From: a virus
Taxonomy: Duplodnaviria; Caudoviricetes
Length of the DNA: 61,949 nucleotides
IMG/VR virus record: IMGVR_UViG_3300015245_000719
Coordinates: 1 to 61,949 of that record
Reading direction: 5' to 3' (one strand)
Shown here: piece by piece, positions 1 to 13,866 of the stretch
Layout of the letters: each line of letters starts with the position of its first letter
Numbering within the stretch: position 1 is the first letter of the stretch
The notes under the pieces: model-generated
The model's input: only the letters and a program-made list of their open reading frames with translations
What the model was told of the DNA's origin: nothing
Database searches by the model: none
Position numbers and translations under genes: made by a program

Positions 1-219
1 ATGCGCGCCCTCCTCTCCATCCTTACCCTCGCGCTCGCGAGTTGCGCCAGCGTGGACAGCGTGGATCTGAGCAAGGTTGACCAGGCGTGCGGGCGCGCGT
101 GCACCCAGGACTACTCTACCTGCAACGACAAGTGGAGCTTCACGCCGGTCATGCGCCACAACGAATGCGTCGGCGCGCTAAAGGCATGCGTCTCGACGTG
201 CCCGTCCCGTCACTCCTGA
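1..219 (+). CDS. Small Cys-rich lipoprotein
   Basis: Hydrophobic signal ending in lipobox LAS|C, then six more Cys. Converges on the giant gene with a 10-nt overlap. Upstream context is outside the window. Confidence 0.7.
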   Translation: MRALLSILTLALASCASVDSVDLSKVDQACGRACTQDYSTCNDKWSFTPVMRHNECVGALKACVSTCPSRHS

Positions 220-3200
220 GTATCTTCCCTCGGCGGCCTGAGTAGGGACGCCACCTCGCCGCGCAGCGGTCGCGGCGCCAGCTTGATACTGCGGACGTCC
301 GGCGACATGCCGGCGAGCTGGAGGCGCCTGCGCATGGCCTGCGGCGTGATCACGATCGGCATGGTCGGGTTGGACTTGTTCCACGAGGCGATCTTCCGGC
401 GCACGCTCTCGATGTCGTCCCGGTCTCCGCTCCTGATGGCGTTCACGAACTCGTCCATCAAGGCGGACTTGGTAACGGCGATGAAGTTCTCGTCGTTCCG
501 GATCTCCCCCGTCACCCTCTGGCGATCAGCCACCGCGTTCGGATTGAACCCGGCCGCCTTGCCGACCGCCTCGAGCGGCGAGACCTTCGCCGTGAACTGG
601 CCGCGGGTGTCGCGCGCCTCGCCGCGGGCGAGCATTTCCGACCCCTTCACGAAGTTCTGAGCGGCCGTAGGCAGCGCGCTCTTGGCCGCGCCCAGGAAGT
701 CGCCATGGAAGGCGCGCTCGAGGCCCGTGGCGGCCCCGTAGAGCAGCCCTGCGGCCGGACCGATCAGGTCCCGGACATCCTTGAACTTGTCCGTCTCGCT
801 CACCTTGGCGAAGGCGGTCCCGGGGATCAGGTTGCCCATGGAGAGCCGCTGGCTGACGTCGAACGGGCTCACCGCGCTCGGGAGCCCCTGGACGAAGGCG
901 TTCCCGAGGAACTGGCCCAGGATCCTCTTCGACTGCTTGTCGAGCCACTTCTTGCTGTTGGTCGTCAGGCCGAGGTCGGGGAAGCGCTGACCGATCGTGT
1001 CGATCAGGTCCTCCAGGTCCTCGGCGAATGGCAGTCCCTCGACGCCGGCGGCGAGCAGGAGCAGCACGACCATGTAGACGCGTTGTTGCATTGGCATGCG
1101 GTGCAGCAGCTCGAGCACGTTGATGCTGAACTGCTTGAACGTCATCAGCGTGGACCCGAGCGCGCCGCGGCCCAACACCGGCCTGTTGCCCTTGTTGTAA
1201 AGGAACTGCGTCTCGTAGACGGCGTTCTCGGCGAACTTGTGCGGATCCCCCAACTGCTCGTTGGCCTCAGCGATCTTGTGGGCAGCGATGTAGGCCACGC
1301 GCCGGTTGAACGTCTCGGCGTATCCGAACATGGAACCCCACGCTTTGAGGAAGGATTCCGAATACTTGTTGCCCGCGAGCTTCGAGCCAGAGGCCACGCC
1401 CATCATTTGAAACACCTCTTGCGAGGCGGTCGTTCCGTCCTCCTCGGCCTTGCGAAGGTTGTCCCACAGGCGCCCGGTATGCACGAAGTCGCCGTTCAGT
1501 TTCTTCGAGAACGGGTCGAGTACGGCGTCCTTCGCCGCTCCGGTCAGGCGTGCAAGCACGTCTGGCAGGGATGCGAACTTCGTTAGGAACGGCCCCGTGA
1601 TAAGCGGAGTCTGAGTCAGGTTCGTGACGGCGGACGCGAGCGAGCCACCGATGAAGTGGAAGAACAGGTAGCCGCGCAGCTTGTGAGCCTCTTCCACCGG
1701 GTCGCGCAGGTACTTGTAGAGCGAGACCGCGTGGTCGCGCAGGTCGCCGTCCTCGATGTCCATGACGGCCTTCCCCATTCCAGGGAAGTTGTCGTTCGCG
1801 CTGGCGGCGCGCGAGTTCGTCATGATGAAGTCGGCCAGACCGCGGTAGGCGTCCTGCGAGAAGCCTGGCACGCCCTTCCGGTTAATGAATCGCTTCATCA
1901 TGGACCGGCTGGAGAACAGCTCCTTGTACGCCTCCTGGTACACCTCGTCATTCGCCACGCCCAGGTGCTCCGCGAATAGCTCTAGCGCGTCCAGGTTGAG
2001 CCCGTCGTACATGCGGAACGAGTTCTTGCTGATCGTGCCGGTCTCGATCTTGTACGCGTTAGGGAACTTGGCGCGCATGCGCGTCTCTTCGCGGTTCGAC
2101 TTGATGTTTGCCACGTGGCTCGTCAGGCCCTCGTGCAGGGAGAAGTGAGACGAGTTGCCGTCCTCGTAGTCCTTCTGCGTCTTGTACACCGCGACGTAGT
2201 GCGTTCCGAAGCGCGACAGCGGGAAGTAACCCTGATTGGACAGCTCGTTCACACGCTGAACGAGCTCTCCGATCTTGGCTACGCTCTTCTGGTCGGCGCG
2301 GACGGACGCCTTCAACTGCTCTACCCTGAACTCGAAGCCGGGCGGCTGCGCCTGCCGCAAGGTGTCGATGTTGCCCTTGGCCTCGGCGATGCGCTCCCCG
2401 AGCTGGAGCTCGATGTCGGCCGCGAAGTCCTCCATGTTGAGGTCCCTGTTCATGCTGACGCCAGTTTTCTTCGCCTCGCGCGCGATGAACGAATTAGCCT
2501 GCGTCTCGAGGGCTTGACGGACGGACGCATGCGCCTCGTGGTACATGCGGACCTGGGGCTCGGTGAGTGGCGTGAGAACCTTGTCGCCGTCCGGCGTGTT
2601 CACCGTGGGGCCGGAGCGAAGCTGCTCGTCCGAGAACACCTTGTTCAGCAGCGTGCCGTGCAGGAGGTACTGCGATGCGGCGTCGGCGTCCTTGCGGTTG
2701 ATGCCCTGCAACCATCCGCGCTTGAACCACGTCGGCGCTACCTTCTCGGCAGCGCTGGCGTTACGCCAGATGTCGGAGAGGAAGTTCTGCCCCCACTCGA
2801 ACACGTGTCGGAACTGAGTGTTGTTCTTGGCGAGGTTGAACTGTGTGCCGATCGTCTTGCTCCACATGCCGACCTTCGAGTCGGACTTCGTAACCTCGTT
2901 GATCCAGTCTCCCATGCGGCTGTAGAGCGGGGAGTTTGAGAACGCGTCGGCGTCCGGCGCCAGGGAAGCTGGCGCGCCCTGCTCCACCGTGCGCGCTGCC
3001 GGCGCAAGGAACTGGCGGATGATCTCCGCGTCCGTGATCTTCTGCTTGGACAGGATGCCGTGGTCGCGCAGCCATTGCGTGATGGCCGCGATGGCGCGCC
3101 GGACGAACCCGAGCTTGGGTTCGGACTGAGCCATGATGGCCAGCAGCTCCTCGGCCATCCTCGAGCGGTTCTCGGGGGTGTTCGGCATCCCCTGGGCCTT

Positions 3201-6200
3201 GAGGAGAGCTGCTACCTGCGAGGCCCGCGCGGTGGCGATCTGATCCAGGATCTCGGCGAGGCCGCGACCGAAGGTCTTGCGCAGCCCGTAGTGCCCCTTG
3301 ACCTCGTGGACCAGCGTGAACTTGGCGCCCGCGGCGTCGAGGTTCTGAGCGACTAGGTACACCTTGCCGCCGAAGAACACGCCCCCTACGTCCGTGGCGT
3401 TCTCGCGCTCGATCTGCTCGCGCACCTGCTGAGGGAGGTCCGCCAGGGTGGCAACCACCTCGACGTCCGGAGCGTCCGTCCAGTTGGCCTTCAGGTCGTT
3501 CACGGCCTTCTGGACCTCCCACACCTGACCGGCCTTGTCCTGGGCGCCGCGCGAGAAGGCCGCGCCCTCATACTTCTTCTCGTACTTGGACATGAACTTC
3601 TGCGCGGTTGTGGTCTGCGACTCGTTGACGTACAGACCCTTTCGCTCCGCGACCCACTTGATCGCCGCCTTGATGCGGTCGGGGTCGCGCATGTTCACTC
3701 GGAACGAGCTCTTCCCCTGCGCTGCCAGGTCGCCGGTGATTGCCACCAGCTCCTTGCTCTCGTACAGCTTCTTCGCGCCCGGGACGCGCTGGATGATCAG
3801 GTCCACCCACGGGCCAGCCGAGTCACCGACGAAGCGGACCATGTTGTCGTTGCTCGCCACGCCAAGCTGCTCGACGCCCTGCATGTCCTGGTAGGACAGG
3901 CGGTCGCGGGCGAAGGATGGCGACGTGAGGTAGTCGTAGATGCCGTCCACGTACTGCGCACCGTAGCGCGCGCGGTTAGACAGGAACACGTCCTGGTTCT
4001 GGACCATGGACGGCGTGAAGTTCTTCGGCAGCAGCAGCCCTTGCCGGCGCTCTCCGCCCTTCATGGTGAAGGTCACCACGTCGCCTACGTTGTTGGCGGC
4101 GCCGTAGCCTGCCGGGATGTTCCCGAGAACGTAGTAGCGCATTTCGCGCGGCTTCTCCCCGCTGATCTCACCCTTCTGCGGCTTGAACAGGAAGTCGAGG
4201 TCGTCCGAGCTCGTGTCCCGGAGAGCCTGGTCCAGGATGTTGTCGCGGATGATCTTCGAGAGCGGGATGGACGCGCGCCTGTTCTCGTTGTTGATCATGA
4301 AGTTGATTACGAAGTTCGACGGCGACCACGGATTGCCAGCTGACGGGAGGTTCGATTTGATGCCGATGATCACGCCCTGTGGCAGCGCGCCGTCGTCAAG
4401 GGCGAGACGCGCGTGATAGCCGATCTTCATCTGGCGCAGGTTCGCCAGGGTGTTCCGGCGCACGCCCTCGAAGTTGGCGATCTTCTTCTGAGTCGCCTGG
4501 ACATGGGCCGTGAGGTCCCGGCGACGCGCGTCCGAAATTGTTTCGTCCTTTAGCTGGTCGTTCAGGCCGCCAGCCCCCTCGATCTTGTTGAACTCGGCGG
4601 CCTTTGCCTGCTCGAACGGAGCCGTGCGCTCGTCCTCGAGGGCCTGGAGGATTTGTTCCGGCGTGCGGCCGTTCAGAGCCTCAGCGATAGCGCTCTTGAC
4701 CTCCTCCGGGCTCGGCCTGGTGCCCTGGACGAACATAGACATGTGGGTGAGGCTGGACGGCCTGGTGAAGATGCTGGAGCCGTCCCCGGAGGTGAGCTCC
4801 TGCTCGTGCTCGGGGATCGCCTCGGTGTCCAGGTCGCGAACGACCAGCTTGTTCGTGCCGGATTCGTTCTTCATGTTGATGATGGCGTTGTAGGCGTGCT
4901 CGACCTGATCGTAGAAGTCCTTCTGGTCGGCGACGGACAGGAGCGCGACGCGTCCGCTTGCTGCGAGCGCAACGCCCTCAGTGGATTTCTCGTCTCCGAT
5001 CTCCACGTTCACGAAGTCGGCCACGTCCTCGTGCTCGCGCAGGTACTCGGTCACGGCCTCGTCGCCGTAGAGGTTGATGAAGTCGATCGCCTGGACGTCC
5101 GTGGCTGACGACTGCCCGCTGGTGGTGTTCGACAGCAGGCTAGTCATCTTCTTCTTGAGGACAGCCATAGGGCGCTTCTCGGACGGGAGCGCGGTAGCCA
5201 GGACCGTGTAGTCCGGGGCGACGATCTGACCGGTGCGGTGCACGCGGCCCAGGGTTTGCTGGAACACGCTGATGTCGCCGGCGGCCTGGAGGATGATCAT
5301 GTGCCGCGCGCGCTTGTCAGCGAATTCCACGGACGCGTGCATGCTGATGCCGGTCGAGCCGGCGGAGTTCAGGATCACTGCGTCGATTGACCCGTCGTTG
5401 AAGCCGCGGACTGTGCCAATGCGATCGGCCTCCTCCTTGTTCCGGTTGCTGAGGACAGCCTTCCCGGTGGAGTAGTCCACGATGTTCGTGCGGCCGGTGA
5501 TCTCCGACACGCGCAGGGGCCGCAGCTTCTTGCCGCCCGACTCAGTGAACTTGACGTACTTGCGCTCGGGGTTGCCGTTCGCGTCCTCGTTGCCGGTGAA
5601 GTAATAGCCGTACTGGTTCAGGCGCGACCGCATGTAGTCGATCGGCGAGGCGGAGAGCGGCGTCTCCAGCTTGCTGATGACCTCGGACGCCTCGGTGAAC
5701 ACCCGGACCAGGTGCGACGGCATGCGCGCCATGGGCACGCTGATCTCCAAAGCCTTGCCGCCATGGGGCGGCTTGTACTTGAATGCGCGCCGGCGCTCGA
5801 GCGCCTTCATCAGGAGGGGATTCCAGCTGTAGTCGTCGAGCGCGTCACCCTGCTGTAGGGCCATGGAGCCGATGTAGTGGTCGAGCGCGGACTCCATGGT
5901 GTTCTCCAGCGGGATGATCACCTTTTGGTTGGTGTTGAGCTGGTTGATAGCCTTGTCCACCGCCCGATCCGCCTTAGTGGCCAGGAGGAGCTGCTTGACG
6001 TAGTTGTGCACGACGGACGTGAACGGGGTGTGCGTCAGGCTTTGCTGCTCGCCCTTCTTGTTGCGCACGATCTCGCTGCCGGGCGGCAGAAGATCCTGGA
6101 GCCTGTCAGCGTTCTGCTTGAACCACTGAATGAACTCCCGGTCGGCCCTGACGATCGTGCGCAGGGCGTTCGTGGCCTCGTCCATCAGGCGCGTGTCGCG

Positions 6201-9200
6201 CGCCAGGTTCTCATCGTCCACCTCGAAGTTGACCTTGAGCATGGACATGTCCTTCTCGCGGCGGGACATCTGGCCGTCCTCGACCAGCATGTTCGCCAGC
6301 ACGCTCTGCATCTGCGGGCCGCCGGTCGAGAGCATTTCCACGAGCTGCGCCGGGTCCTGCGCCAGCAGGCCGATGTTCGTGCGCATGTAGATCGGCATGT
6401 TGTTCGTGCGCTTGGCGTAGGTCGCCGACAGGTACACGACGGGCGGCGCGTAATCTGAGAACTGCCCCTGCATCCACTCGCCGACGCCTGAGTCGCCGCT
6501 TGCATTGTGGGACTCGTCGAGGATCAGGACGGCCTTCCCGGTCGAGAACAGCTTCGCCAGCGCGGAGCGGCGCGCGTTCTCCTGGTTGATCTGCGCGTAG
6601 GTCGTGAAGATCGCCGAACGGCCCTCCGGGAGGGTGCCGGTATTGACGATATGCTCGACTCCCTGCTTCGCTGCGCCCTTCTTGTTCGTGAAGAGCTTCG
6701 TCTTGCCGCTCGGGTCGCGTGGGTCGATGACCTCGCCATCCGTGTTCGTGAGGAACGGCGAGATCTCCGGATGCCCGATCGCGATCATGTCGCGGTACAT
6801 GTCGCTGTACAGGGTGTCGCTGTAGGACATGAACACCGGAACCTTATCGTTGCGGATGGACCAGTTGATCAGGGAGGCGGCCTGCCGCCCCTTGCCGACG
6901 CCGGTAGCGTCTCCGATGATCATGCCGCGGCCGTCCTTCAGCTGAAGGACGGCGAGCGCGATGTTGTCGATCTGGTAGCCGGACAGGGCGTCGAACATCT
7001 TCTCCTTCGTCCCGTACCCGAGCTCCTTCTGCACGAAGTCGTCGATGCTCTCGGAGCCCTGCTCGTGGATCTTGTCCTCGGCCACGTCCAGGGCGTCGCG
7101 CAGCGCGCGCGCCTGGTTGCGCGGCACCAGGATGCCGAGGTTCTGTCCCTGCGACTTGCCCTCGTACACCGTCTGGTTGTTGTTGTCGTGCCCGACGTCG
7201 GAAGGAGACATGACCTTCGAGGGCGGGTACATCTTGTCGAGGATGTACACCTTCGCGTATTTCTGGATTCCCTCGATCGCCTCGCCGAAGCGCTGAGAGA
7301 CGATGCGCTTGAACTCGAGCACAGCTCGCGTGGCGTCTGCAACCTTGGCGCGAATGGCCTGCCAGACGTTCTCGAACACCTTGCGAAGCTGCTGGTAGAT
7401 GGTTGCATCGACGGTCCCGAGCGCTTCTTCGTACAGCTTCCTGCTGAACACGGCTCCTCCGCTGTCTTTCTCGCCGATGATCTTCTTGATCTCGTCGAAT
7501 TCTTTTGAAAAATCCAGGCCGAGCGAACGCTCAGCCGCGGTTACATTCGAGCTGCTTTTCGGTGCGCGCTTGCCACCTCCGCGAGGACCGCGTGGTGGGC
7601 CTTTCGGTCCGGGGTTGCCCTCGACGGGCGCCCCGGTCTTTTCGTCAGGTACTAGGACCGACTCATCGTTGAAGATGCGGTCGATGTCCTCCGGCGAGAG
7701 ACCTTCTAGGCCGGTATCGCTTCCAGAAACTCCGACAGGTCCAGGCTGCTGCTCGCCTCGATTGCTTCCTTCCGGAGCTCCGGGTTCGTTTCCGGTTCCG
7801 CCGACGCCGGATCCCCCGCTTGCACCAGGGTTCCCACCCGGCCGCTCGACATCAGCCCCTCCACCCACCCCTGCGGGAACTCCGCCCACAGGATGCTGTT
7901 TTCCTCCGCCTCGAGGTTCGTTTCGACGAGGGCCTTGGCCTCCTTCTTTCCCGCCTTCAGGAGCAGCGACTCCAGCTTCTCCCTGATTGCTTCCCGGTAC
8001 GGCTGGCCCTGCGGGACCACCAACGCCGCTGCGTGGCTCGGCCGGTCCAGCTTCGGAACCCACATTGGCGTTGCCGGTGACAACGGCTTCGCTTGCTCGT
8101 TTTGCGTCCTCGTACTGCCTGTAGAGTGCATCGTACCCCTCCGTTACGCTGTAATTTACGCGCGTGATCGTACCACTGGCCGGCGCAACCTGCGCGGAGC
8201 GCCCGCGGCCGGCAATCGTGATGACTCGAATCGGCCACGCCGCGCCTTGGCGCTCGTAGAAAGAGCCGTCTACCTCGAAGTGCGAAGCGACATTGTAGTG
8301 GCCGTAGAGCCAGTTGAAGAATGGTTTCTCCCGGGAGTTGATCTCCCCTGGAATCCTGTTGGCGCCGATGATCAGCACGGCGCGCCCCTTGTCGAACATG
8401 GCCTCGAGCGCCCGCGCGATGATCAGCTGGTCGATCCTCGTGACCTGGTAGCCGTCCGCGAGCGCGGGCGCCTCCAGCTTCCCGAACGGAGGATTCGCGA
8501 GCACCGCGTCGGCCTCGTCCTTGCCGAATACGTTCTCTTCCTTCGCCTTCACCGCGTCCTTCTGCGTGACGCGCGGGAAGCCGAGGAGCTTCAGATTGAG
8601 CGCCCTGTGCTCGTCCAGCTCGTTCGCGATGACGTTCTTGGGCGTCGCGGTGATGGTGAGCAGCCCGTTCCCGGCAGTGGGCTCGTACACCTTGGTATCG
8701 ACTCCAACGCGCGCGAGCAGCCCGGCCATGTAGGCGATCGGGAGCGGCGTCGAGTATTGCTGCAAGGACGAGCTGGTGGACGTGCGGATGTTCAGCTTCG
8801 GCTGCTTGCGGTACATATCCACCAGGTTGTCGAAGATGCCGCGCTCGTTCGTGCCGGTCGCGCGCCAGTCGATGATCTTCTGCGCGGCGAACTGTCCGAG
8901 GGCTGCCTCGAAGTCCTCCTGCCCCTTCTTCTGAAGGATCAGGTTGCCCTCTACCTCTGTGGGGTCGAGGCGGTGCGCTTGCGCTACCCAGGAGAGCAGG
9001 TCCTTGCCGCTCTCAGGGAACCATCCTTTTCGCAGGTGGAAGAACATGCTCTCGACCATGGAGTCGTTCTTGACCTCGGGGTATTGCACGAGGCCCATGT
9101 CCTCCATGATCTTGTCGATGCGGCCTGAGATCTCCTTGGCCTGCTCGCGCCCGACGGCAATCCTCATCTGCTCGACGTTCTTCGCGCCTTCCTTGACGCG

Positions 9201-12200
9201 CACACCCTCTGGAGTGAACTCCAGGCCAGCGAAGAAGTTCTTGTAGTCCTGGGCGAACAGGCGCCGCTCTTCAGCCTGCGGGTATGCGGTTCCCTTGTAG
9301 CCGTTCGTTTTCGTCATAGCTCCTTCTCGAACGAGAGGTCCGACGAGGTACGGCGATCCGCCCTTCACGAGGTCGAAGAGGTACGCTTCCTCTCCGCGCG
9401 CCACCATTTCTGCGCCCTTCGAGTAGTACGGGTCTGAGCCGTGATCCAGCTTTTGCGCTTCGTTGAGGTAGATGGTGTTCCGCAGCAGACCGCCGCGGTA
9501 TTCCGGGCTCTTCCAGTCAGAGGTCCCTTTCTCGTTCAGCCAGTTGAGGACGCGCTCGCGCGGTGGAACATTGCGGTTCTGGTAGTCGGCGTCTCCGACC
9601 AGGAGCTCGCGGACCTTCGCCTCCATCTTGGCGAAGTTGAAGTATTGGTTGAGAACGTGACGAAGCGCCTCTGAGTACAGCCTCGCTCCGTCCTGCTCGG
9701 AGTGGATCAAGTAGTGCTCGAGCGCGTGCATCCACTCGTGCGAGACGGTACCGTTCCCATTCGTCTTGGTGAGATTGATCACCTCTCCGCCGATGTGGCT
9801 GGTTTCGAAGTGGGCGGCGGCCTTGCTGATCTTCTGCCCGCGCGAGCCGAACGCCAGCGCGAGCTTCCCGCCGAGTCCAACCACCTTCGGGTCGATCCCG
9901 AGGTTGTCGGACATGTCCATCAGGGAGTCGTAGGCTAGGTTCAGGTTCTCCTGGCGCTCGAGCTGGTTGACCCACTCGCCGAACTCGACCTCGCGGAAGC
10001 CGAACGCGGACTTGAAGTCGGCCTCGTTGACGTTCTGGCCCTTTCGGTAGTCCTTCATCCCGACGCGGGTGATGTTCTCCAGGCGAGGCGGGACCTTCGG
10101 GTCCTTCTTGACCACGCGGTTCGTCTGGTCGATCTCGTTCTCGTTCGGCTGGAATGCTTTCAGGTAGTAGTCGAGCATCGCGTACAGATCGTTGCTCATC
10201 ATGCGCTGAAGCTCGCTGCCGAATTTCGTCGCGGTGTGCGTACTTCCGTAGCTATTCGCCTCGCCCTCTGTGAACGCTTCGTTCTTGATTGCAGCGTTCG
10301 CCTCGGCAACGTTCTTGGCGTCCTTCGTCAGCTCTTCCAGCTTGGAGAGCATCCCGATATAGCGCTCGGCCTGCGCCTTGACTTCGGAGTATTCCGTGTC
10401 GATCAACGCCTGCTTGAGGCTCTTGCCCCACCGCGTATTGCCCTGCTGGCCGCCGAAGCCTGGGCCTGCGAATTCGAGGAACGTTTTCAGCTTCTCGCGA
10501 ACAGCCTCGAGGTAGAGCATCGTCCCGAAGGTCGCGTCGGGGCGCTCGATCGTGAAGTGGTTCGCGACCTTCGCCTCGTCGATCAGCTTGTCGATGTCCT
10601 TCTCTCCCTCGCCGGTTGGCTCGGAGAGACGCAGAGTTCCGCCAGCAGGCTTGCCTCCGACGACGCCCGTGTCATGGATGTCGCTCTTCTGCGGCCGGTA
10701 CATCGTGTAGAGCTGGATGCGCGCGACGCCCTGCTCGGGCTGGAGCCGGTCCGTGACCTTGAAGCCCATCTTCTTCATCACGCTCTCGATGGGCTTCTGG
10801 TTCTCGACCGTCACGGACATCTGGACGATTCCCTCGTCGAGGATGGTTGCGCCGTCCTCGAAGGTGGGCGTGAGCTCGGCGGCGCCGTAGATATGATCGG
10901 TGAGCGCCTTGTTGTTGCGCTCGGCGATCATCTTCACCAACGGGTCCACCGGCGGCTTCGGCGCCTTCGGGGCCTTTGGCTCTTTCGGCGCCTTCGGTTC
11001 CTTGGGCGCCTTCGTCTCCTCCGGTGTGGCAGGCGGCTGCTCGCCGGGCGTCTCGGGTGTCGCCGGCGCCTCGGGCGTCGCGGGCGCGCCGGGCGCTTCT
11101 CCGCCGGTCACGCCCTCGTTGTTGCCGTGGATCTTCTTCGCGTTCTGTGCTACGCGCTCCAGGCGGTCCAGGTTCTCGCCGAACGGCGCCTCCTGGCCGA
11201 TGCGCTTGCGGATGTTCGCGGCCCGGCGCTCGTCGCCGATGCTGTCGTAGATCTTCGCGATGCTCTCGAGCCGCTGGTCGCGCTCGCTCAGTTGTACACC
11301 GCCGTTGGGTGCCTCCGCGGCGGGCGTGGCAGGCCCCCCTTCGACATGCTCCGGCGCTTCTGGTCCAGCGCTATTGCCACCGCCTGTTTGTCCGCTTTCT
11401 CCTTCCCGAACTTGTCCTGTGTCCGCTGGTACGTGTTCCCCTGGTGCAGCTCCTCGATGTTCTGGCCCACCACCTTGTTCGACGTTCCCTTCTCCAACGG
11501 CATTGCTCTCTCCCTGTGATTGCGGGGCCGCGCCGCCTTCAACGCCGGCGCCCTCCCCTTGTTGTTGGGTCCCGCCTTCCTGCGATTCAGCGGGCGCGCC
11601 CGGAGCTACAGGTTCCGCAGCCGGGGCCTCCGGTAGTTCCGGCGTCTGTTCGGCGCCGGCCGGTAGTCTCGGTGTCTTGCTGAATGTTCCCGCCGCGATG
11701 GCGGCCTTGAATTCCGGTACGGACAGCTGACGCATGCTGCCGAAACCTTTCCATCCCGCCTCGTAGTTCGCGAGGTAGCCCTTCTTGGCTGCGCGCGCGG
11801 ACTGGAAGCCGACCATGATCTTGTACTCGTCGTGATCGCCGCTCTCGGGGTCCACCTGGTCGATGGCGAACACGGTCGAGCTGTTCGGGTGCGGCCCGAT
11901 GAACACGTCCACCTTGTCGCCGTCGCTGCCGACAGTGCCCTCGATCTCGCCGTAGTGGTTGGCCATCGTGACGGACCACTCCTTGCCGGTCTTGTCCGTC
12001 CCGCGGCGCACGCTCCCCTTCGGGTTCTCTATAGCGATGTCGAGACCGTGGAAGTTGACGACGCCCTTGTTGTACTTGCCGGTATCCTTCTCCTCCTCGG
12101 TGGGGTTCTTGTCGGTGAATCCTGCGGCGTTCTCGACGTCCGCCTTCGTAGGCGCGCCCTGCTCGGGCGCCGCCGGAGCTGCTGGCGCGGGCTCGGCTTG

Positions 12201-13802
12201 CGGAGGTGTCTCCGCAGCTGGTGCCGGAGCTGGCGGCGGAGGCGGAGCGGCGTGCTCGCCGCCGCCCGTCATCGCACCGAAGCCGGCGCCGGTCGGGGCC
12301 GCGGCAATAGCGCTCCCGATGGAGTTGTTCCATACGCCATCCATCAGGTCCTTGCCTGGGTTCGCGTGCTGCTGCTCCGCTACGTTCGAGAGGAACTGCT
12401 CGAACCATCCCTGCGTGAGCTCGGTTGGCGTCTCGATCGCGAGGCCGTGCATCGCCTCCTTGAAGCGCGTCATGCCCGAGCCGCCGCGCGTCATCACCTT
12501 CGCGACCTGGGAGCCGACGTAGCCATCGAAGCCTGCGCCAAGGAGCGCGGTAGCCGCGCCGACCTGCCACAGGGTTTGGATGCCGGCGGAGTTCGAGATC
12601 TCGGCGCGCGCCTTCGCGCGGTCGCCGTGGGACTTCACGAGCGCAGCCTGGTACTCCGGAGCCTGCTCGAGCACGCTCTCCGGGAGCTTCGCGATGGAGT
12701 CCTCGACCTGCTGCCCCTGCTGGCCGCCGGCGATCAGGCCCTCGCCCGCGCCCCCGAGTGCGATGGCGCTGTACGTCGCAGCCTTGATCGCCGCCTTCTC
12801 TGCGGCTGCCCTCGCTGCGAGGGCCGACAGGCCCAACGTCTGCGACTTCGCGAGGGACGTGCGGAAGGCGACAGTTGCGGCGAACTTCGCGCCGACGCCC
12901 GCCACCGGGAGCGTAGCCAACGTGGACGGCAGCGAGTTGACGATGCCAGAGTAGTACGCGCGCGGATCTGACCACGCCTCTCCGAAGGTCTCGCCCTTCT
13001 GGCTCGAGATCCATTCTTTCTGCGACGCGTCGCGCATGTCCGGCGACAGCTTGTCCCCGTAGTAGTCGGAGACGTCCTGCATGATGCCAGACAGGCTACG
13101 GCCAAGATGCTCTTCCGAGAGCCGGTTGATCTCGCCGCCGCTCACCTTGTCGGCGGCGTATGAGAGCCCCTGCACGGCCTGCGCTGACCCCTGGCCGAGC
13201 AGGTTCAGGGTGTCAGAAATAATGCCCGGTTTTTCTGACGGAGCAGCCTTGACTGGCTCCTCCGGGTCCGCTACGAAGTCGGTGAACGCGCCGGACTGCG
13301 CCGGCCCGGCGATGTTGCGGTTGACGCCGGCGACGTACTGCGGCACAGAAACGCCGTTGCCGTCGCGGATGTGCCCCATGCGGCTCACGTCGCCGCCGTA
13401 CTGGTCGATCAGCTTGGGGTCGGTGAAGTAGGCGGCCGTCTGCGCGTCGGGGTTGCTCGGGTAGCGGTCGGCGTTCTGCTTGATCAGCTTCGCGGCGGCG
13501 CGCGCGTTGTCGTTCGGGTCGTCGATGTTGCCGTCGGGCATGAGGCCGCCGAACGTGGCGGGCATGACCTGGAAGCCGCCGCGTGCGCCGTTGACGCTCG
13601 TGCGCGGGTTGCGCCCGCTCGAGCTCTCCATCTGCCAGTGCGCGAGGACGCGCTGAGGATCTGCGCCCTCTTCCTTCGCGATGCGGATTACGTCATCGCG
13701 CGTGATGCTCGTGGGGGTCTGAGCCTGCGATACGGGGGAAGAGACCGGCGCGTCGGGCGAGCCTGGGACGTTCTCGACGAAATCGGTGAAGCCGGTTGAC
13801 AT
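210..13802 (-). CDS. Giant DarB-like polyvalent virion protein (~4530 aa): lytic transglycosylase, PPase-like, LPD1 peptidase, N6-adenine MTase, Strawberry-notch helicase, zincin, PLxRFG domains
   Basis: Start moved to ATG 13802 (GGGAG upstream). Motifs: MESS...GGFQVMPATF; IENPKGS...HYGEIEGT.G.DGDKVDVFIG; VEFGEW...HEWMH; EPTAGNG...NPPF; GDATGVGKGR...DESH; HEVKGH; YFPLSRFG. Confidence 0.92.
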   Translation of the reverse strand: MSTGFTDFVENVPGSPDAPVSSPVSQAQTPTSITRDDVIRIAKEEGADPQRVLAHWQMESSSGRNPRTSVNGARGGFQVMPATFGGLMPDGNIDDPNDNARAAAKLIKQNADRYPSNPDAQTAAYFTDPKLIDQYGGDVSRMGHIRDGNGVSVPQYVAGVNRNIAGPAQSGAFTDFVADPEEPVKAAPSEKPGIISDTLNLLGQGSAQAVQGLSYAADKVSGGEINRLSEEHLGRSLSGIMQDVSDYYGDKLSPDMRDASQKEWISSQKGETFGEAWSDPRAYYSGIVNSLPSTLATLPVAGVGAKFAATVAFRTSLAKSQTLGLSALAARAAAEKAAIKAATYSAIALGGAGEGLIAGGQQGQQVEDSIAKLPESVLEQAPEYQAALVKSHGDRAKARAEISNSAGIQTLWQVGAATALLGAGFDGYVGSQVAKVMTRGGSGMTRFKEAMHGLAIETPTELTQGWFEQFLSNVAEQQHANPGKDLMDGVWNNSIGSAIAAAPTGAGFGAMTGGGEHAAPPPPPAPAPAAETPPQAEPAPAAPAAPEQGAPTKADVENAAGFTDKNPTEEEKDTGKYNKGVVNFHGLDIAIENPKGSVRRGTDKTGKEWSVTMANHYGEIEGTVGSDGDKVDVFIGPHPNSSTVFAIDQVDPESGDHDEYKIMVGFQSARAAKKGYLANYEAGWKGFGSMRQLSVPEFKAAIAAGTFSKTPRLPAGAEQTPELPEAPAAEPVAPGAPAESQEGGTQQQGEGAGVEGGAAPQSQGESNAVGEGNVEQGGGPEHRGAAPGEHVPADTGQVREGESGQTGGGNSAGPEAPEHVEGGPATPAAEAPNGGVQLSERDQRLESIAKIYDSIGDERRAANIRKRIGQEAPFGENLDRLERVAQNAKKIHGNNEGVTGGEAPGAPATPEAPATPETPGEQPPATPEETKAPKEPKAPKEPKAPKAPKPPVDPLVKMIAERNNKALTDHIYGAAELTPTFEDGATILDEGIVQMSVTVENQKPIESVMKKMGFKVTDRLQPEQGVARIQLYTMYRPQKSDIHDTGVVGGKPAGGTLRLSEPTGEGEKDIDKLIDEAKVANHFTIERPDATFGTMLYLEAVREKLKTFLEFAGPGFGGQQGNTRWGKSLKQALIDTEYSEVKAQAERYIGMLSKLEELTKDAKNVAEANAAIKNEAFTEGEANSYGSTHTATKFGSELQRMMSNDLYAMLDYYLKAFQPNENEIDQTNRVVKKDPKVPPRLENITRVGMKDYRKGQNVNEADFKSAFGFREVEFGEWVNQLERQENLNLAYDSLMDMSDNLGIDPKVVGLGGKLALAFGSRGQKISKAAAHFETSHIGGEVINLTKTNGNGTVSHEWMHALEHYLIHSEQDGARLYSEALRHVLNQYFNFAKMEAKVRELLVGDADYQNRNVPPRERVLNWLNEKGTSDWKSPEYRGGLLRNTIYLNEAQKLDHGSDPYYSKGAEMVARGEEAYLFDLVKGGSPYLVGPLVREGAMTKTNGYKGTAYPQAEERRLFAQDYKNFFAGLEFTPEGVRVKEGAKNVEQMRIAVGREQAKEISGRIDKIMEDMGLVQYPEVKNDSMVESMFFHLRKGWFPESGKDLLSWVAQAHRLDPTEVEGNLILQKKGQEDFEAALGQFAAQKIIDWRATGTNERGIFDNLVDMYRKQPKLNIRTSTSSSLQQYSTPLPIAYMAGLLARVGVDTKVYEPTAGNGLLTITATPKNVIANELDEHRALNLKLLGFPRVTQKDAVKAKEENVFGKDEADAVLANPPFGKLEAPALADGYQVTRIDQLIIARALEAMFDKGRAVLIIGANRIPGEINSREKPFFNWLYGHYNVASHFEVDGSFYERQGAAWPIRVITIAGRGRSAQVAPASGTITRVNYSVTEGYDALYRQYEDAKRASEAVVTGNANVGSEAGPAEPRSGVGGPAGPAVPGSNQGEAGVAAPEGGKEGGQGPRRNEPRGGGKQHPVGGVPAGVGGGADVERPGGNPGASGGSGVGGTGNEPGAPEGSNRGEQQPGPVGVSGSDTGLEGLSPEDIDRIFNDESVLVPDEKTGAPVEGNPGPKGPPRGPRGGGKRAPKSSSNVTAAERSLGLDFSKEFDEIKKIIGEKDSGGAVFSRKLYEEALGTVDATIYQQLRKVFENVWQAIRAKVADATRAVLEFKRIVSQRFGEAIEGIQKYAKVYILDKMYPPSKVMSPSDVGHDNNNQTVYEGKSQGQNLGILVPRNQARALRDALDVAEDKIHEQGSESIDDFVQKELGYGTKEKMFDALSGYQIDNIALAVLQLKDGRGMIIGDATGVGKGRQAASLINWSIRNDKVPVFMSYSDTLYSDMYRDMIAIGHPEISPFLTNTDGEVIDPRDPSGKTKLFTNKKGAAKQGVEHIVNTGTLPEGRSAIFTTYAQINQENARRSALAKLFSTGKAVLILDESHNASGDSGVGEWMQGQFSDYAPPVVYLSATYAKRTNNMPIYMRTNIGLLAQDPAQLVEMLSTGGPQMQSVLANMLVEDGQMSRREKDMSMLKVNFEVDDENLARDTRLMDEATNALRTIVRADREFIQWFKQNADRLQDLLPPGSEIVRNKKGEQQSLTHTPFTSVVHNYVKQLLLATKADRAVDKAINQLNTNQKVIIPLENTMESALDHYIGSMALQQGDALDDYSWNPLLMKALERRRAFKYKPPHGGKALEISVPMARMPSHLVRVFTEASEVISKLETPLSASPIDYMRSRLNQYGYYFTGNEDANGNPERKYVKFTESGGKKLRPLRVSEITGRTNIVDYSTGKAVLSNRNKEEADRIGTVRGFNDGSIDAVILNSAGSTGISMHASVEFADKRARHMIILQAAGDISVFQQTLGRVHRTGQIVAPDYTVLATALPSEKRPMAVLKKKMTSLLSNTTSGQSSATDVQAIDFINLYGDEAVTEYLREHEDVADFVNVEIGDEKSTEGVALAASGRVALLSVADQKDFYDQVEHAYNAIINMKNESGTNKLVVRDLDTEAIPEHEQELTSGDGSSIFTRPSSLTHMSMFVQGTRPSPEEVKSAIAEALNGRTPEQILQALEDERTAPFEQAKAAEFNKIEGAGGLNDQLKDETISDARRRDLTAHVQATQKKIANFEGVRRNTLANLRQMKIGYHARLALDDGALPQGVIIGIKSNLPSAGNPWSPSNFVINFMINNENRRASIPLSKIIRDNILDQALRDTSSDDLDFLFKPQKGEISGEKPREMRYYVLGNIPAGYGAANNVGDVVTFTMKGGERRQGLLLPKNFTPSMVQNQDVFLSNRARYGAQYVDGIYDYLTSPSFARDRLSYQDMQGVEQLGVASNDNMVRFVGDSAGPWVDLIIQRVPGAKKLYESKELVAITGDLAAQGKSSFRVNMRDPDRIKAAIKWVAERKGLYVNESQTTTAQKFMSKYEKKYEGAAFSRGAQDKAGQVWEVQKAVNDLKANWTDAPDVEVVATLADLPQQVREQIERENATDVGGVFFGGKVYLVAQNLDAAGAKFTLVHEVKGHYGLRKTFGRGLAEILDQIATARASQVAALLKAQGMPNTPENRSRMAEELLAIMAQSEPKLGFVRRAIAAITQWLRDHGILSKQKITDAEIIRQFLAPAARTVEQGAPASLAPDADAFSNSPLYSRMGDWINEVTKSDSKVGMWSKTIGTQFNLAKNNTQFRHVFEWGQNFLSDIWRNASAAEKVAPTWFKRGWLQGINRKDADAASQYLLHGTLLNKVFSDEQLRSGPTVNTPDGDKVLTPLTEPQVRMYHEAHASVRQALETQANSFIAREAKKTGVSMNRDLNMEDFAADIELQLGERIAEAKGNIDTLRQAQPPGFEFRVEQLKASVRADQKSVAKIGELVQRVNELSNQGYFPLSRFGTHYVAVYKTQKDYEDGNSSHFSLHEGLTSHVANIKSNREETRMRAKFPNAYKIETGTISKNSFRMYDGLNLDALELFAEHLGVANDEVYQEAYKELFSSRSMMKRFINRKGVPGFSQDAYRGLADFIMTNSRAASANDNFPGMGKAVMDIEDGDLRDHAVSLYKYLRDPVEEAHKLRGYLFFHFIGGSLASAVTNLTQTPLITGPFLTKFASLPDVLARLTGAAKDAVLDPFSKKLNGDFVHTGRLWDNLRKAEEDGTTASQEVFQMMGVASGSKLAGNKYSESFLKAWGSMFGYAETFNRRVAYIAAHKIAEANEQLGDPHKFAENAVYETQFLYNKGNRPVLGRGALGSTLMTFKQFSINVLELLHRMPMQQRVYMVVLLLLAAGVEGLPFAEDLEDLIDTIGQRFPDLGLTTNSKKWLDKQSKRILGQFLGNAFVQGLPSAVSPFDVSQRLSMGNLIPGTAFAKVSETDKFKDVRDLIGPAAGLLYGAATGLERAFHGDFLGAAKSALPTAAQNFVKGSEMLARGEARDTRGQFTAKVSPLEAVGKAAGFNPNAVADRQRVTGEIRNDENFIAVTKSALMDEFVNAIRSGDRDDIESVRRKIASWNKSNPTMPIVITPQAMRRRLQLAGMSPDVRSIKLAPRPLRGEVASLLRPPREDTQE
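7706..8131 (-). CDS. Overprinted 141-aa protein nested in the +1 frame of the giant gene
   Basis: GGAGGGG 5 nt before ATG. Genome-typical codons (CTG, GAG, AAG, ATC) in this frame while host-frame third positions become A/T-rich. Helical, globular-looking sequence. Confidence 0.65.
   Translation of the reverse strand: MHSTGSTRTQNEQAKPLSPATPMWVPKLDRPSHAAALVVPQGQPYREAIREKLESLLLKAGKKEAKALVETNLEAEENSILWAEFPQGWVEGLMSSGRVGTLVQAGDPASAEPETNPELRKEAIEASSSLDLSEFLEAIPA
11288..11503 (-). CDS. Overprinted 71-aa basic phage protein (MPLxKG...KQAVAIAL type) nested in the +1 frame of the giant gene
   Basis: AGGGAGAG SD before ATG 11503. MPLEKGTSNKVVGQNIEEL...KQAVAIAL matches a small phage protein pattern I recall as a stand-alone gene (DUF6496-like). 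Confidence 0.75.
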   Translation of the reverse strand: MPLEKGTSNKVVGQNIEELHQGNTYQRTQDKFGKEKADKQAVAIALDQKRRSMSKGGLPRPPRRHPTAVYN

Positions 13803-13866
13803 CTTGTTCTTCTCCCGGCCTGCGCTGCGCAAAGGCGCGCGCCGTCACCGCGGTAGTTGATCTTCC

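Follow-up and report, generated by a model that had tools for sequence, protein, structure and literature searches.

Can a stretch of phage DNA that specifies a linker in a giant protein carry a second gene in another frame? This question is raised by a locus in IMG/VR virus record IMGVR_UViG_3300015245_000719 (Duplodnaviria; Caudoviricetes), a provirus record with a completeness estimate of 99% whose full 61,949 nucleotides (nt) form the window analyzed here. A single open reading frame (ORF) on the minus strand (210-13832), which carries Pfam domains, encodes a polyvalent protein of 4,540 residues, and inside it, in the +1 frame, lies an ORF of 141 codons running from ATG to TAG at 7706-8131 on the same strand. 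Comparison with related sequences leads us to conclude that this nested ORF is probably a genuine embedded gene, with translation of both frames.

A 141-codon open reading frame lies within an interdomain linker

The nested ORF, whose product we refer to as P0001, begins 5,701 nt into the giant ORF and overlies host residues 1901 to 2042. A Shine-Dalgarno-like GGAGGGG (8136-8142, minus strand), which may act as a start signal, stands 4 nt 5' of its ATG (8129-8131). In the giant frame, the same bases encode a low-complexity linker rich in Gly, Pro, Glu, and Ala (host residues ~1921 to 2040; 7713-8072, minus strand), and the host-frame motif LSPEDIDRIF follows directly after it (residues 2045 to 2054; 7671-7700, minus strand).

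An earlier note, made from the letters of this DNA alone, had described a 141-residue ORF in the +1 frame with a Shine-Dalgarno sequence across a Gly/Pro/Glu-rich linker. Coordinates, frame, and GGAGGGG were all found as described, the host codons quoted there (GGA AGC AAT CAG GGA GAA GCT GGA GTC GCT GCT CC.) are present in the sequence, and both quoted peptides, YREAIREKLESLLLK and LDLSEFLEAI, occur in the nested translation. The note had further claimed a local drop in the G+C content of host third codon positions (GC3), and we measured 0.475 in the overlap versus 0.859 gene-wide. Over all three host codon positions (GC1/2/3), the overlap reads 0.82/0.65/0.475, compared with 0.63/0.43/0.86 for the whole gene, and thus the nested frame itself reads 0.65/0.475/0.82, a coding-like pattern. 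The predicted product is acidic, with an isoelectric point (pI) of 4.9.

The nested product belongs to a conserved protein family

A phmmer search of P0001 against 1.84 billion representative proteins returned 14 matches at an E value of ≤1e-3, including 5 at ≤1e-10, the best of which (E = 1.4e-28) shares 53% identity. Thirteen of the 14 are credible homologues of 98 to 220 residues. The other, P0095 (2,043 residues), is a repeat protein matched over a short SGDP-like stretch and was set aside as spurious; apart from it, the phmmer matches included no giant protein. A profile search of a 5.8-billion-protein set gave 11 matches at E ≤ 1e-3, of which 8 were new (P0103 to P0110), all of them 119 to 142 residues long, while a profile search for longer carriers of the domain (386 to 2000 residues) found none, which is weak evidence.

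In an alignment of 30 sequences, W24, P26, K52, L56, and F135 are invariant, 11 further columns are nearly so, and every row is acidic (pI 4.05 to 4.94). P0001 matched no family in Pfam (E ≤ 0.01), PHROGs v4 (E ≤ 0.01), or NCBIfam 20 (E ≤ 1), and four other members together with L015, a stand-alone homologue described below, yielded a single weak Pfam row (E = 0.014), below the cut-off. About two dozen members have been called among billions of database proteins, which fits the suggestion that gene callers miss such genes.

Related giant genes carry the homologue at the same place and in the same frame

Searches of IMG/VR DNA with a second subgroup of the family (subgroup 2) recovered 11 loci (L004 to L014; GC content of 0.37 to 0.49), and a search with P0104 recovered one more (L016; GC content of 0.41). 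At each of the 12 loci the homologue occupies 133 to 136 open codons from stop to stop, always in the +1 frame of a giant ORF whose uninterrupted length is 2,156 to >4,700 codons; stops divide the third frame into segments of 16 to 48 codons. With the window included, the nested +1 frame and the giant frame are therefore both intact at 13 of 13 DNA loci. The relatives' giants share the LPD1 ... AAA_34/Helicase_C_4 layout of the window's giant.

Across the overlap, the host-frame product at each of the 12 loci is a linker rich in Gly, Thr, Pro, Glu, and Arg. It is preceded by (F/Y)(D/E)(E/Q)LWSRYV and followed by GGLS.(1-5 residues)[LI][DE].[IL]F, mostly GGLSDLDLDxIF. In the AT-rich locus L009, where the GC3 of the giant gene is 0.20, every other +1 open stretch is shorter than 75 codons. 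All 12 embedded ORFs examined have a GGAG 4 to 7 nt 5' of an in-frame ATG, as well as a stop 0 to 5 codons 5' of their first ATG.

Other routes to related DNA were unproductive. No match was returned by blastn of the region against GenBank phages or by tblastn of P0001 and P0094 against phages and of P0001 and P0104 against plasmids. Searches with the host segment in genome contigs and with the subgroup-1 alignment A2 in viral contigs also found none, and P0003, the closest relative of the giant protein, led in metagenome contigs only to an unrelated weak locus (L003).

A more distant giant (L002), with flanks 37 to 40% identical, carries a 155-codon +1 ORF (4758-5222, plus strand) at the same methylase-helicase junction. 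This ORF has AAGGAG before its ATG, and the host GC3 is 0.28 to 0.46; it may be a very divergent member of the family or an independent case.

Both reading frames are under selection

We next compared substitutions among nine nonredundant subgroup-2 loci (36 pairs), having dropped L008 and L010, which are 100% identical to L006 and L009, respectively. Differences at host codon positions 1/2/3 numbered 1482/759/4675 in the upstream flank, 510/324/1322 in the downstream flank, and 1135/765/567 in the overlap. Most differences in the flanks thus fall at host position 3, while the maximum in the overlap falls at host position 1, where the nested codons have their wobble base. Distances for substitutions that are silent in the host frame and change the nested protein were 1.26 upstream, 1.78 downstream, and 0.145 in the overlap, a suppression of approximately 10-fold. 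For substitutions that change the host protein and are silent in the nested frame, the corresponding distances were 0.12, 0.17, and 0.434, the host frame of the overlap changing about three times faster than the flanks at such sites. The nested frame is under strong purifying selection, and constraint on the host frame is relaxed without being absent.

For the window itself, selection is supported indirectly, by the homologues and by the phase of its differences from L015: at the DNA level, 59 of 117 aligned residues are identical, and the differences are distributed 40/35/63 over nested codon positions 1/2/3.

In the reverse direction, we held the nested protein fixed and redrew its codons from the usage of the gene in 5,000 trials for each of the window, L004, L006, L007, and L009. 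In each of the four relatives, where 9.2 to 10.6 stops are expected, not one of the 5,000 trials left the host frame open; the host frame is selected to stay open. The nested GC3 is 0.68 to 0.78 in genomes whose ordinary GC3 is 0.20 to 0.47, as would be expected if the nested wobble base has been recruited to supply G/C-first host codons. In the stand-alone L015, the equivalent frame has two stops inside the domain.

The nested protein is predicted to adopt a compact helical fold

AlphaFold2, run on the 30-row alignment, gave a mean predicted local distance difference test (pLDDT) score of 88.5 and a predicted template modeling score of 0.77, with 106 of 141 residues at a pLDDT of at least 90. 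The conserved domain spans residues 23 to 141 (7709-8065, minus strand), begins at a second methionine (MWVP), and is predicted to be compact and mainly helical; pLDDT values by block range from 77 to 98 after the first 20 residues, over which the blocks score 61 and 54. Residues 1 to 22 are not conserved, and some lineages may in fact initiate at the conserved MWVP (residue 23). Foldseek found no match at E ≤ 0.001 in PDB or BFVD, and an ESM Atlas search gave no usable match. In the wide VIA-align search the best Z score was 3.6, and weak death-fold-like rows were not significant.

The earlier note's central claim, that a real gene is nested here, is thus borne out by a conserved family, by embedding at the same place in 12 other giants, by purifying selection, and by a confidently predicted fold.

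Embedded relatives appear widespread, and some homologues stand alone

A hidden Markov model (HMM) of the family matched none of 87 giant proteins at E ≤ 10, indicating that the domain is not in frame there, and blastp searches of 86 giants gave best E values of 0.69 with P0001 and 0.48 with the host linker. We therefore used a threading test, which asks whether the protein sequence of a giant can, with free synonymous choice, encode the family in its +1 frame, with shuffled sequences as the null. The linker of the window, serving as the positive control against a profile built without its own row, scored 134 versus 55 ± 6.6 for shuffles (z = 12.1). The linker of P0003, which is 66% identical to the window's giant over 325 flanking residues and is known from protein only, scored 139 versus 63 ± 6.3 (z = 12.1), and two negative controls gave z values of 1.3 and 0.7. 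When a four-block version allowing gaps was applied, 31 of the 87 giants reached z ≥ 5 (range, 5.8 to 12.8), and the others scored ≤4.6. The motif [LI][ST].{1,5}[DE][LI][DE].[LI][FILV] is present in 30 of these 31 family-compatible giants, compared with 3 of the 56 others.

Four homologues are apparently not embedded: L015, for which the DNA was checked, and P0102, P0100, and P0090, which are known from protein only. L015 is a stand-alone gene for 208 residues (3027-3653, plus strand) in an unrelated setting, a 6.7-kb contig of a Chloroflexi metagenome-assembled genome. Its product consists of the domain followed in frame by TGLEGLTKEDIDRI...KTGAPEE...LGLDLSAEIAEIRRIL, the counterpart of the post-linker host frame of the window. 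P0102 likewise has the domain and then the same two post-linker motifs; in P0100 the post-linker motifs come first, and the domain forms the C-terminal end. The neighbors of L015 include an ORF of 711 to 775 residues on the opposite strand. P0090 (211 residues) has a 90-residue N-terminal helical extension unlike a shadow frame and is probably another nonembedded architecture.

Alternative explanations

A number of observations weigh against reading 7706-8131 as a separate, translated gene. When the host protein was held fixed and synonymous codons were redrawn from the gene's own usage in 5,000 trials, the +1 frame of the overlap stayed open in 18% of them (P ~0.18), and other +1 open stretches in the giant gene reach 140 and 200 codons. 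In the reverse resampling, the staying open of the window's host frame was only mildly unlikely (P = 0.09). The codon-phase test covers subgroup 2, whose members are 24 to 34% identical to P0001, and its 36 pairs are linked by phylogeny, which makes the counts nonindependent; for the window's own subgroup, the comparison comprised proteins plus one stand-alone DNA locus (L015). The GGAG-ATG of subgroup 2 sits within the conserved host sequence ELWSRYV, and because of this overlap its conservation could be host driven rather than independent evidence. Internal starts within a translated ORF can also be occluded. Threading picks the best synonymous codons and, calibrated here by shuffles and controls, demonstrates compatibility, not presence. 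Homology of the L002 ORF to the family was not demonstrable, with no hmmsearch match and an hhalign E value of 0.013. L015, P0102, and P0100 carry the domain in frame with what is host-frame post-linker sequence in the giants, as a link by frameshifting predicts, and any functional assignment is a guess. The window by itself leaves the case unsettled; the comparative evidence is decisive.

The resampling result and the long +1 stretches are what one would expect of a chance open frame, in which a hydrophobic-poor linker without +1 stops, having G/C-first codons and relaxed third positions, mimics a coding sequence. Codon-phase composition is an imperfect guide here. Two of the 11 +1 open stretches of at least 80 codons in the giant gene are coding-like, namely, the nested ORF and a stretch over host residues 743 to 848, and the remaining nine have a GC2 of 0.86 to 0.94. 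However, the giant of L004 contains a repetitive Pro/Ala-rich linker (PAVSPAVSPAVS...; host residues 346 to 545) with +1 open stretches of 116 and 82 codons, whose GC phase of 0.57/0.32/0.76 is coding-like, yet whose +1 product is repetitive nonsense that does not resemble a protein. This case calls for caution, since GC phase alone over-calls embedded genes. Chance nevertheless seems scarcely credible at 7706-8131, given homologues at E values down to 1e-28, a stand-alone homologous gene (L015), and the same arrangement at 37 to 49% GC, where other +1 open stretches reach only 62 to 66 codons and the probability of an open +1 frame with the host protein fixed falls to 0.0024 (L009). Neither the switch of the substitution phase to the nested frame nor a predicted fold with a mean pLDDT near 90 would be expected of it. 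Decay of an ancestral in-frame domain, shifted out of frame by compensating indels, no longer expressed, and read in the shifted frame as the linker, would account for the fit of the overlap's GC phase to the nested rather than the host frame, and versions with the domain in frame with the downstream motif do exist elsewhere. Such a relic is hardly plausible, however, because the out-of-frame arrangement is common to lineages with nested proteins 24 to 34% identical to that of the window, the nested frame is intact at every DNA locus, purifying selection continues (0.145 versus 1.26 to 1.78 in the flanks), and the searches found no giant protein with the domain in frame. As for the 156-residue +1 ORF at 6938-7408 (minus strand), which lies just 3' of the nested ORF in the 200-codon open stretch, its shadow-frame GC1/2/3 is 0.34/0.86/0.62, and we rejected it as a gene, since most likely it was opened by chance within GC-rich coding sequence.

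Ribosomal frameshifting is more difficult to dismiss. On this explanation, the domain is not a separate protein but part of an isoform of the giant protein. Ribosomes would either slip by +1 around residue 1900, yielding an N-terminal product that takes in the methyltransferase region and the domain and terminates at the nested TAG, or initiate at the nested ATG and later slip by −1 into the helicase part. The products of L015 and P0102 continue in frame from the domain into a homologue of the post-linker host sequence, in P0100 that sequence precedes a C-terminal domain, and in the window the nested stop overlaps the host GLEGL codons directly before LSPEDIDRIF. At six of six representative loci, however, the last 63 nt contain no X XXY YYZ heptamer in the nested frame, and the six share no conserved homopolymer run of at least 5 nt. 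The GGAG-ATG start signals and the in-frame stops just 5' of the first ATG, present in all 12 embedded ORFs, speak for initiation within the overlap, and a host frame kept open against expectation implies production of the unshifted protein. Two programmed shifts in succession would, to our knowledge, be unprecedented, which we also count against this explanation. We regard frameshifting in either version as improbable. Since there is no heptamer or shared homopolymer run and the host frame is maintained, independent initiation at the nested GGAG-ATG, yielding a separate product, appears to be the better reading.

A second embedded candidate in the same giant gene

The other coding-like +1 stretch of the giant gene (host residues 743 to 848) contains a second candidate, an ORF for 71 residues (P0111) at 11288-11503 on the minus strand, in a Gly/Pro/Glu/Ala-rich linker after the InPase domain. 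A GGAGAG lies 4 nt before its ATG, its nested GC phase is 0.62/0.49/0.88, and the host GC3 there is 0.41. P0111 matches phrog_2423 (E = 2.1e-12); against Pfam DUF6496 it scores 15.5 bits, below the cut-off of 24, which does not establish membership. Its relatives at seven IMG/VR loci comprise five that stand alone, namely, two small genes (L017 and L018) and three N termini of open frames of 152 to 270 codons (L020, L022, and L023), and two ORFs nested in +1 within giant ORFs of 2,098 and 2,283 codons (L019 and L021). The L019 giant carries LPD38.

A model for expression, origin, and role

If 7706-8131 is an embedded gene, ribosomes translating the giant frame would produce a flexible Gly/Pro/Glu-rich linker between the putative methylase and the helicase, and other ribosomes, initiating at the internal GGAG-ATG, would synthesize a distinct acidic helical protein of ~120 to 141 residues. 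In this model the nested frame sets most of the sequence. Each nested wobble position coincides with the first position of a host codon; kept G/C-rich, it would prevent stops in the host frame and favor codons for Gly, Ala, Pro, Glu, and Arg. Both the composition of the linker and the low host GC3 would then be largely by-products of the nested gene, because its wobble positions are kept G/C. The earlier note had taken the linker for such a by-product, and this idea largely stands: the low complexity, the relaxed host frame, and the members found outside giants agree with it, although the host frame is itself selected to stay open.

The small genes look older than the linkers that cover them, because both families occur outside giants and the host-frame linkers have no relatives beyond similarity of composition. 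The giant frame may therefore have been extended through preexisting small genes. Loss of the stop between contiguous genes in different frames is given as one origin of overlaps in the text of Delaye 2008 available to us (PMC2268670). A broader proposal, which we put at slightly less than an even chance, is that giants of this kind are built by threading one long frame through small genes, whose −1 frame becomes a disordered linker while the small gene is still translated as a partner. If this holds, it would amount to gene fusion by overprinting, having taken place at least twice in one gene (7706-8131 and 11288-11503), and it would be widespread: the first family would concern 31 of 87 related giants, the second 2 of 7 related loci.

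The nested product could serve as an assembly factor, chaperone, or regulator, and the overlap would guarantee its coexpression with the giant. Binding after the linker is suggested by the co-occurrence of the motif and by the three fusions to the post-linker segment. These are also the only hints in favor of the earlier note's proposal that the product might be a chaperone or inhibitor of the flanking enzymes. We offer only tentatively, as one possibility among others, that the product, as a partner or assembly factor, binds to the LSxxD[IL]DxIF region that follows the linker in the giant protein. Complex prediction for P0001 and the 100 host residues that follow the linker scored 0.00, which speaks neither for nor against binding, and the AlphaFold model of the L015 fusion protein (mean pLDDT of 76) was uninformative on docking.

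Relation to known systems

Rz and Rz1 of phage lambda form an embedded +1 gene pair whose products are thought to act together. The present arrangement resembles that pair in that a complete small gene with its own start signal lies wholly inside a larger phage gene, in the +1 frame and on the same strand. It differs in its host, a polyvalent protein of 4,540 residues, and in the overlapped segment, a disordered interdomain linker. P0001 moreover contains no cysteine and hence no lipobox, it is predicted to be a soluble acidic helical domain, and it has no sequence or fold relationship to Rz/Rz1.

The virion-packaged DarB of phage P1 is a methylase-helicase anti-restriction protein, and we know of no embedded gene in darB. 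The window's giant, with its putative methylase, is likened to it by layout rather than homology, as a methylase-helicase dyad in a very large protein encoded beside virion and ejection genes.

The giant host protein is polyvalent as Iyer et al. 2017 (PMC5512222) use the term. The text of that article available to us describes such proteins from phages and conjugative elements, including a methylase-helicase dyad and a Sno-like ATPase, and mentions DarB seven times; the same text contains neither "frameshift" nor "overlapping gene," uses "nested" only for a hairpin, and does not describe an out-of-frame embedded gene. The window's giant agrees with that description in its SLT, InPase, and LPD1 domains and its Strawberry-notch-type helicase, the methylase part of the dyad being putative. 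Full-text literature searches turned up no report of an embedded gene in polyvalent proteins, although supplementary files may list such ORFs. Embedded +1 genes as such are known in phages.

Overprinting and overlapping genes in viruses and bacteria are treated in the accessible portions of Pavesi 2021 (PMC8227390), Sabath 2012 (PMC3494269), and Delaye 2008 (PMC2268670). The present locus shares with such cases two proteins from one DNA stretch and one frame that is compositionally odd and less constrained. In the textbook case, however, the new frame is a novel accessory protein arising in an old gene, whereas here the embedded gene looks like the older partner, since stand-alone homologues exist, and the newer frame is the linker that fuses parts of the giant. 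The locus would thus reverse the usual overprinting story, the embedded gene being apparently older than the host segment that covers it, and it suggests how very large multidomain genes can fuse across intervening small genes.

These results add a conserved protein family, hidden from standard annotation, in giant phage proteins thought to act in phage-host conflict, and they provide a concrete case in which a second, underlying code explains why a linker is odd in composition. Where linkers of giant phage genes show inverted codon-position GC, a search for embedded genes is warranted, and "silent" mutations in such linkers would not be silent.

The giant host gene and its setting

Five domains of the host protein score above Pfam cut-offs: SLT (residues 51 to 135), InPase (residues 580 to 712; E = 1.5e-50), LPD1 (residues 1466 to 1537), AAA_34 (residues 2283 to 2546), and Helicase_C_4 (residues 2774 to 2984). 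The helicase is of the Sno type, with its AAA_34 core (6195-6986, minus strand) 3' of the linker, and a long C-terminal region extends beyond it.

Immediately 5' of the nested gene lies a putative N6-adenine methyltransferase region (8133-9032, minus strand) with an NPPF motif (VLANPPFG). Its Pfam matches are subthreshold only (N6_Mtase, E = 0.061 and 13.1 bits versus a cut-off of 20.4; MTS, E = 0.099), and no sequence match to any solved structure was found for it. Two relatives are named "predicted methyltransferase" and "predicted RNA methylase" by the Joint Genome Institute (JGI), and methyltransferase is the probable identity of this region before the linker. A weak promoter-like site at 8368-8395 (minus strand) agrees with the consensus at 9 of 12 positions, as a consensus match only.

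The giant gene is the last gene of a virion and ejection protein module. Genes for the small and large terminase subunits, portal, major head, structural, DNA transfer, and internal virion proteins occupy 13897-40470 on the same minus strand, a neighborhood that fits a packaged or ejected giant protein.

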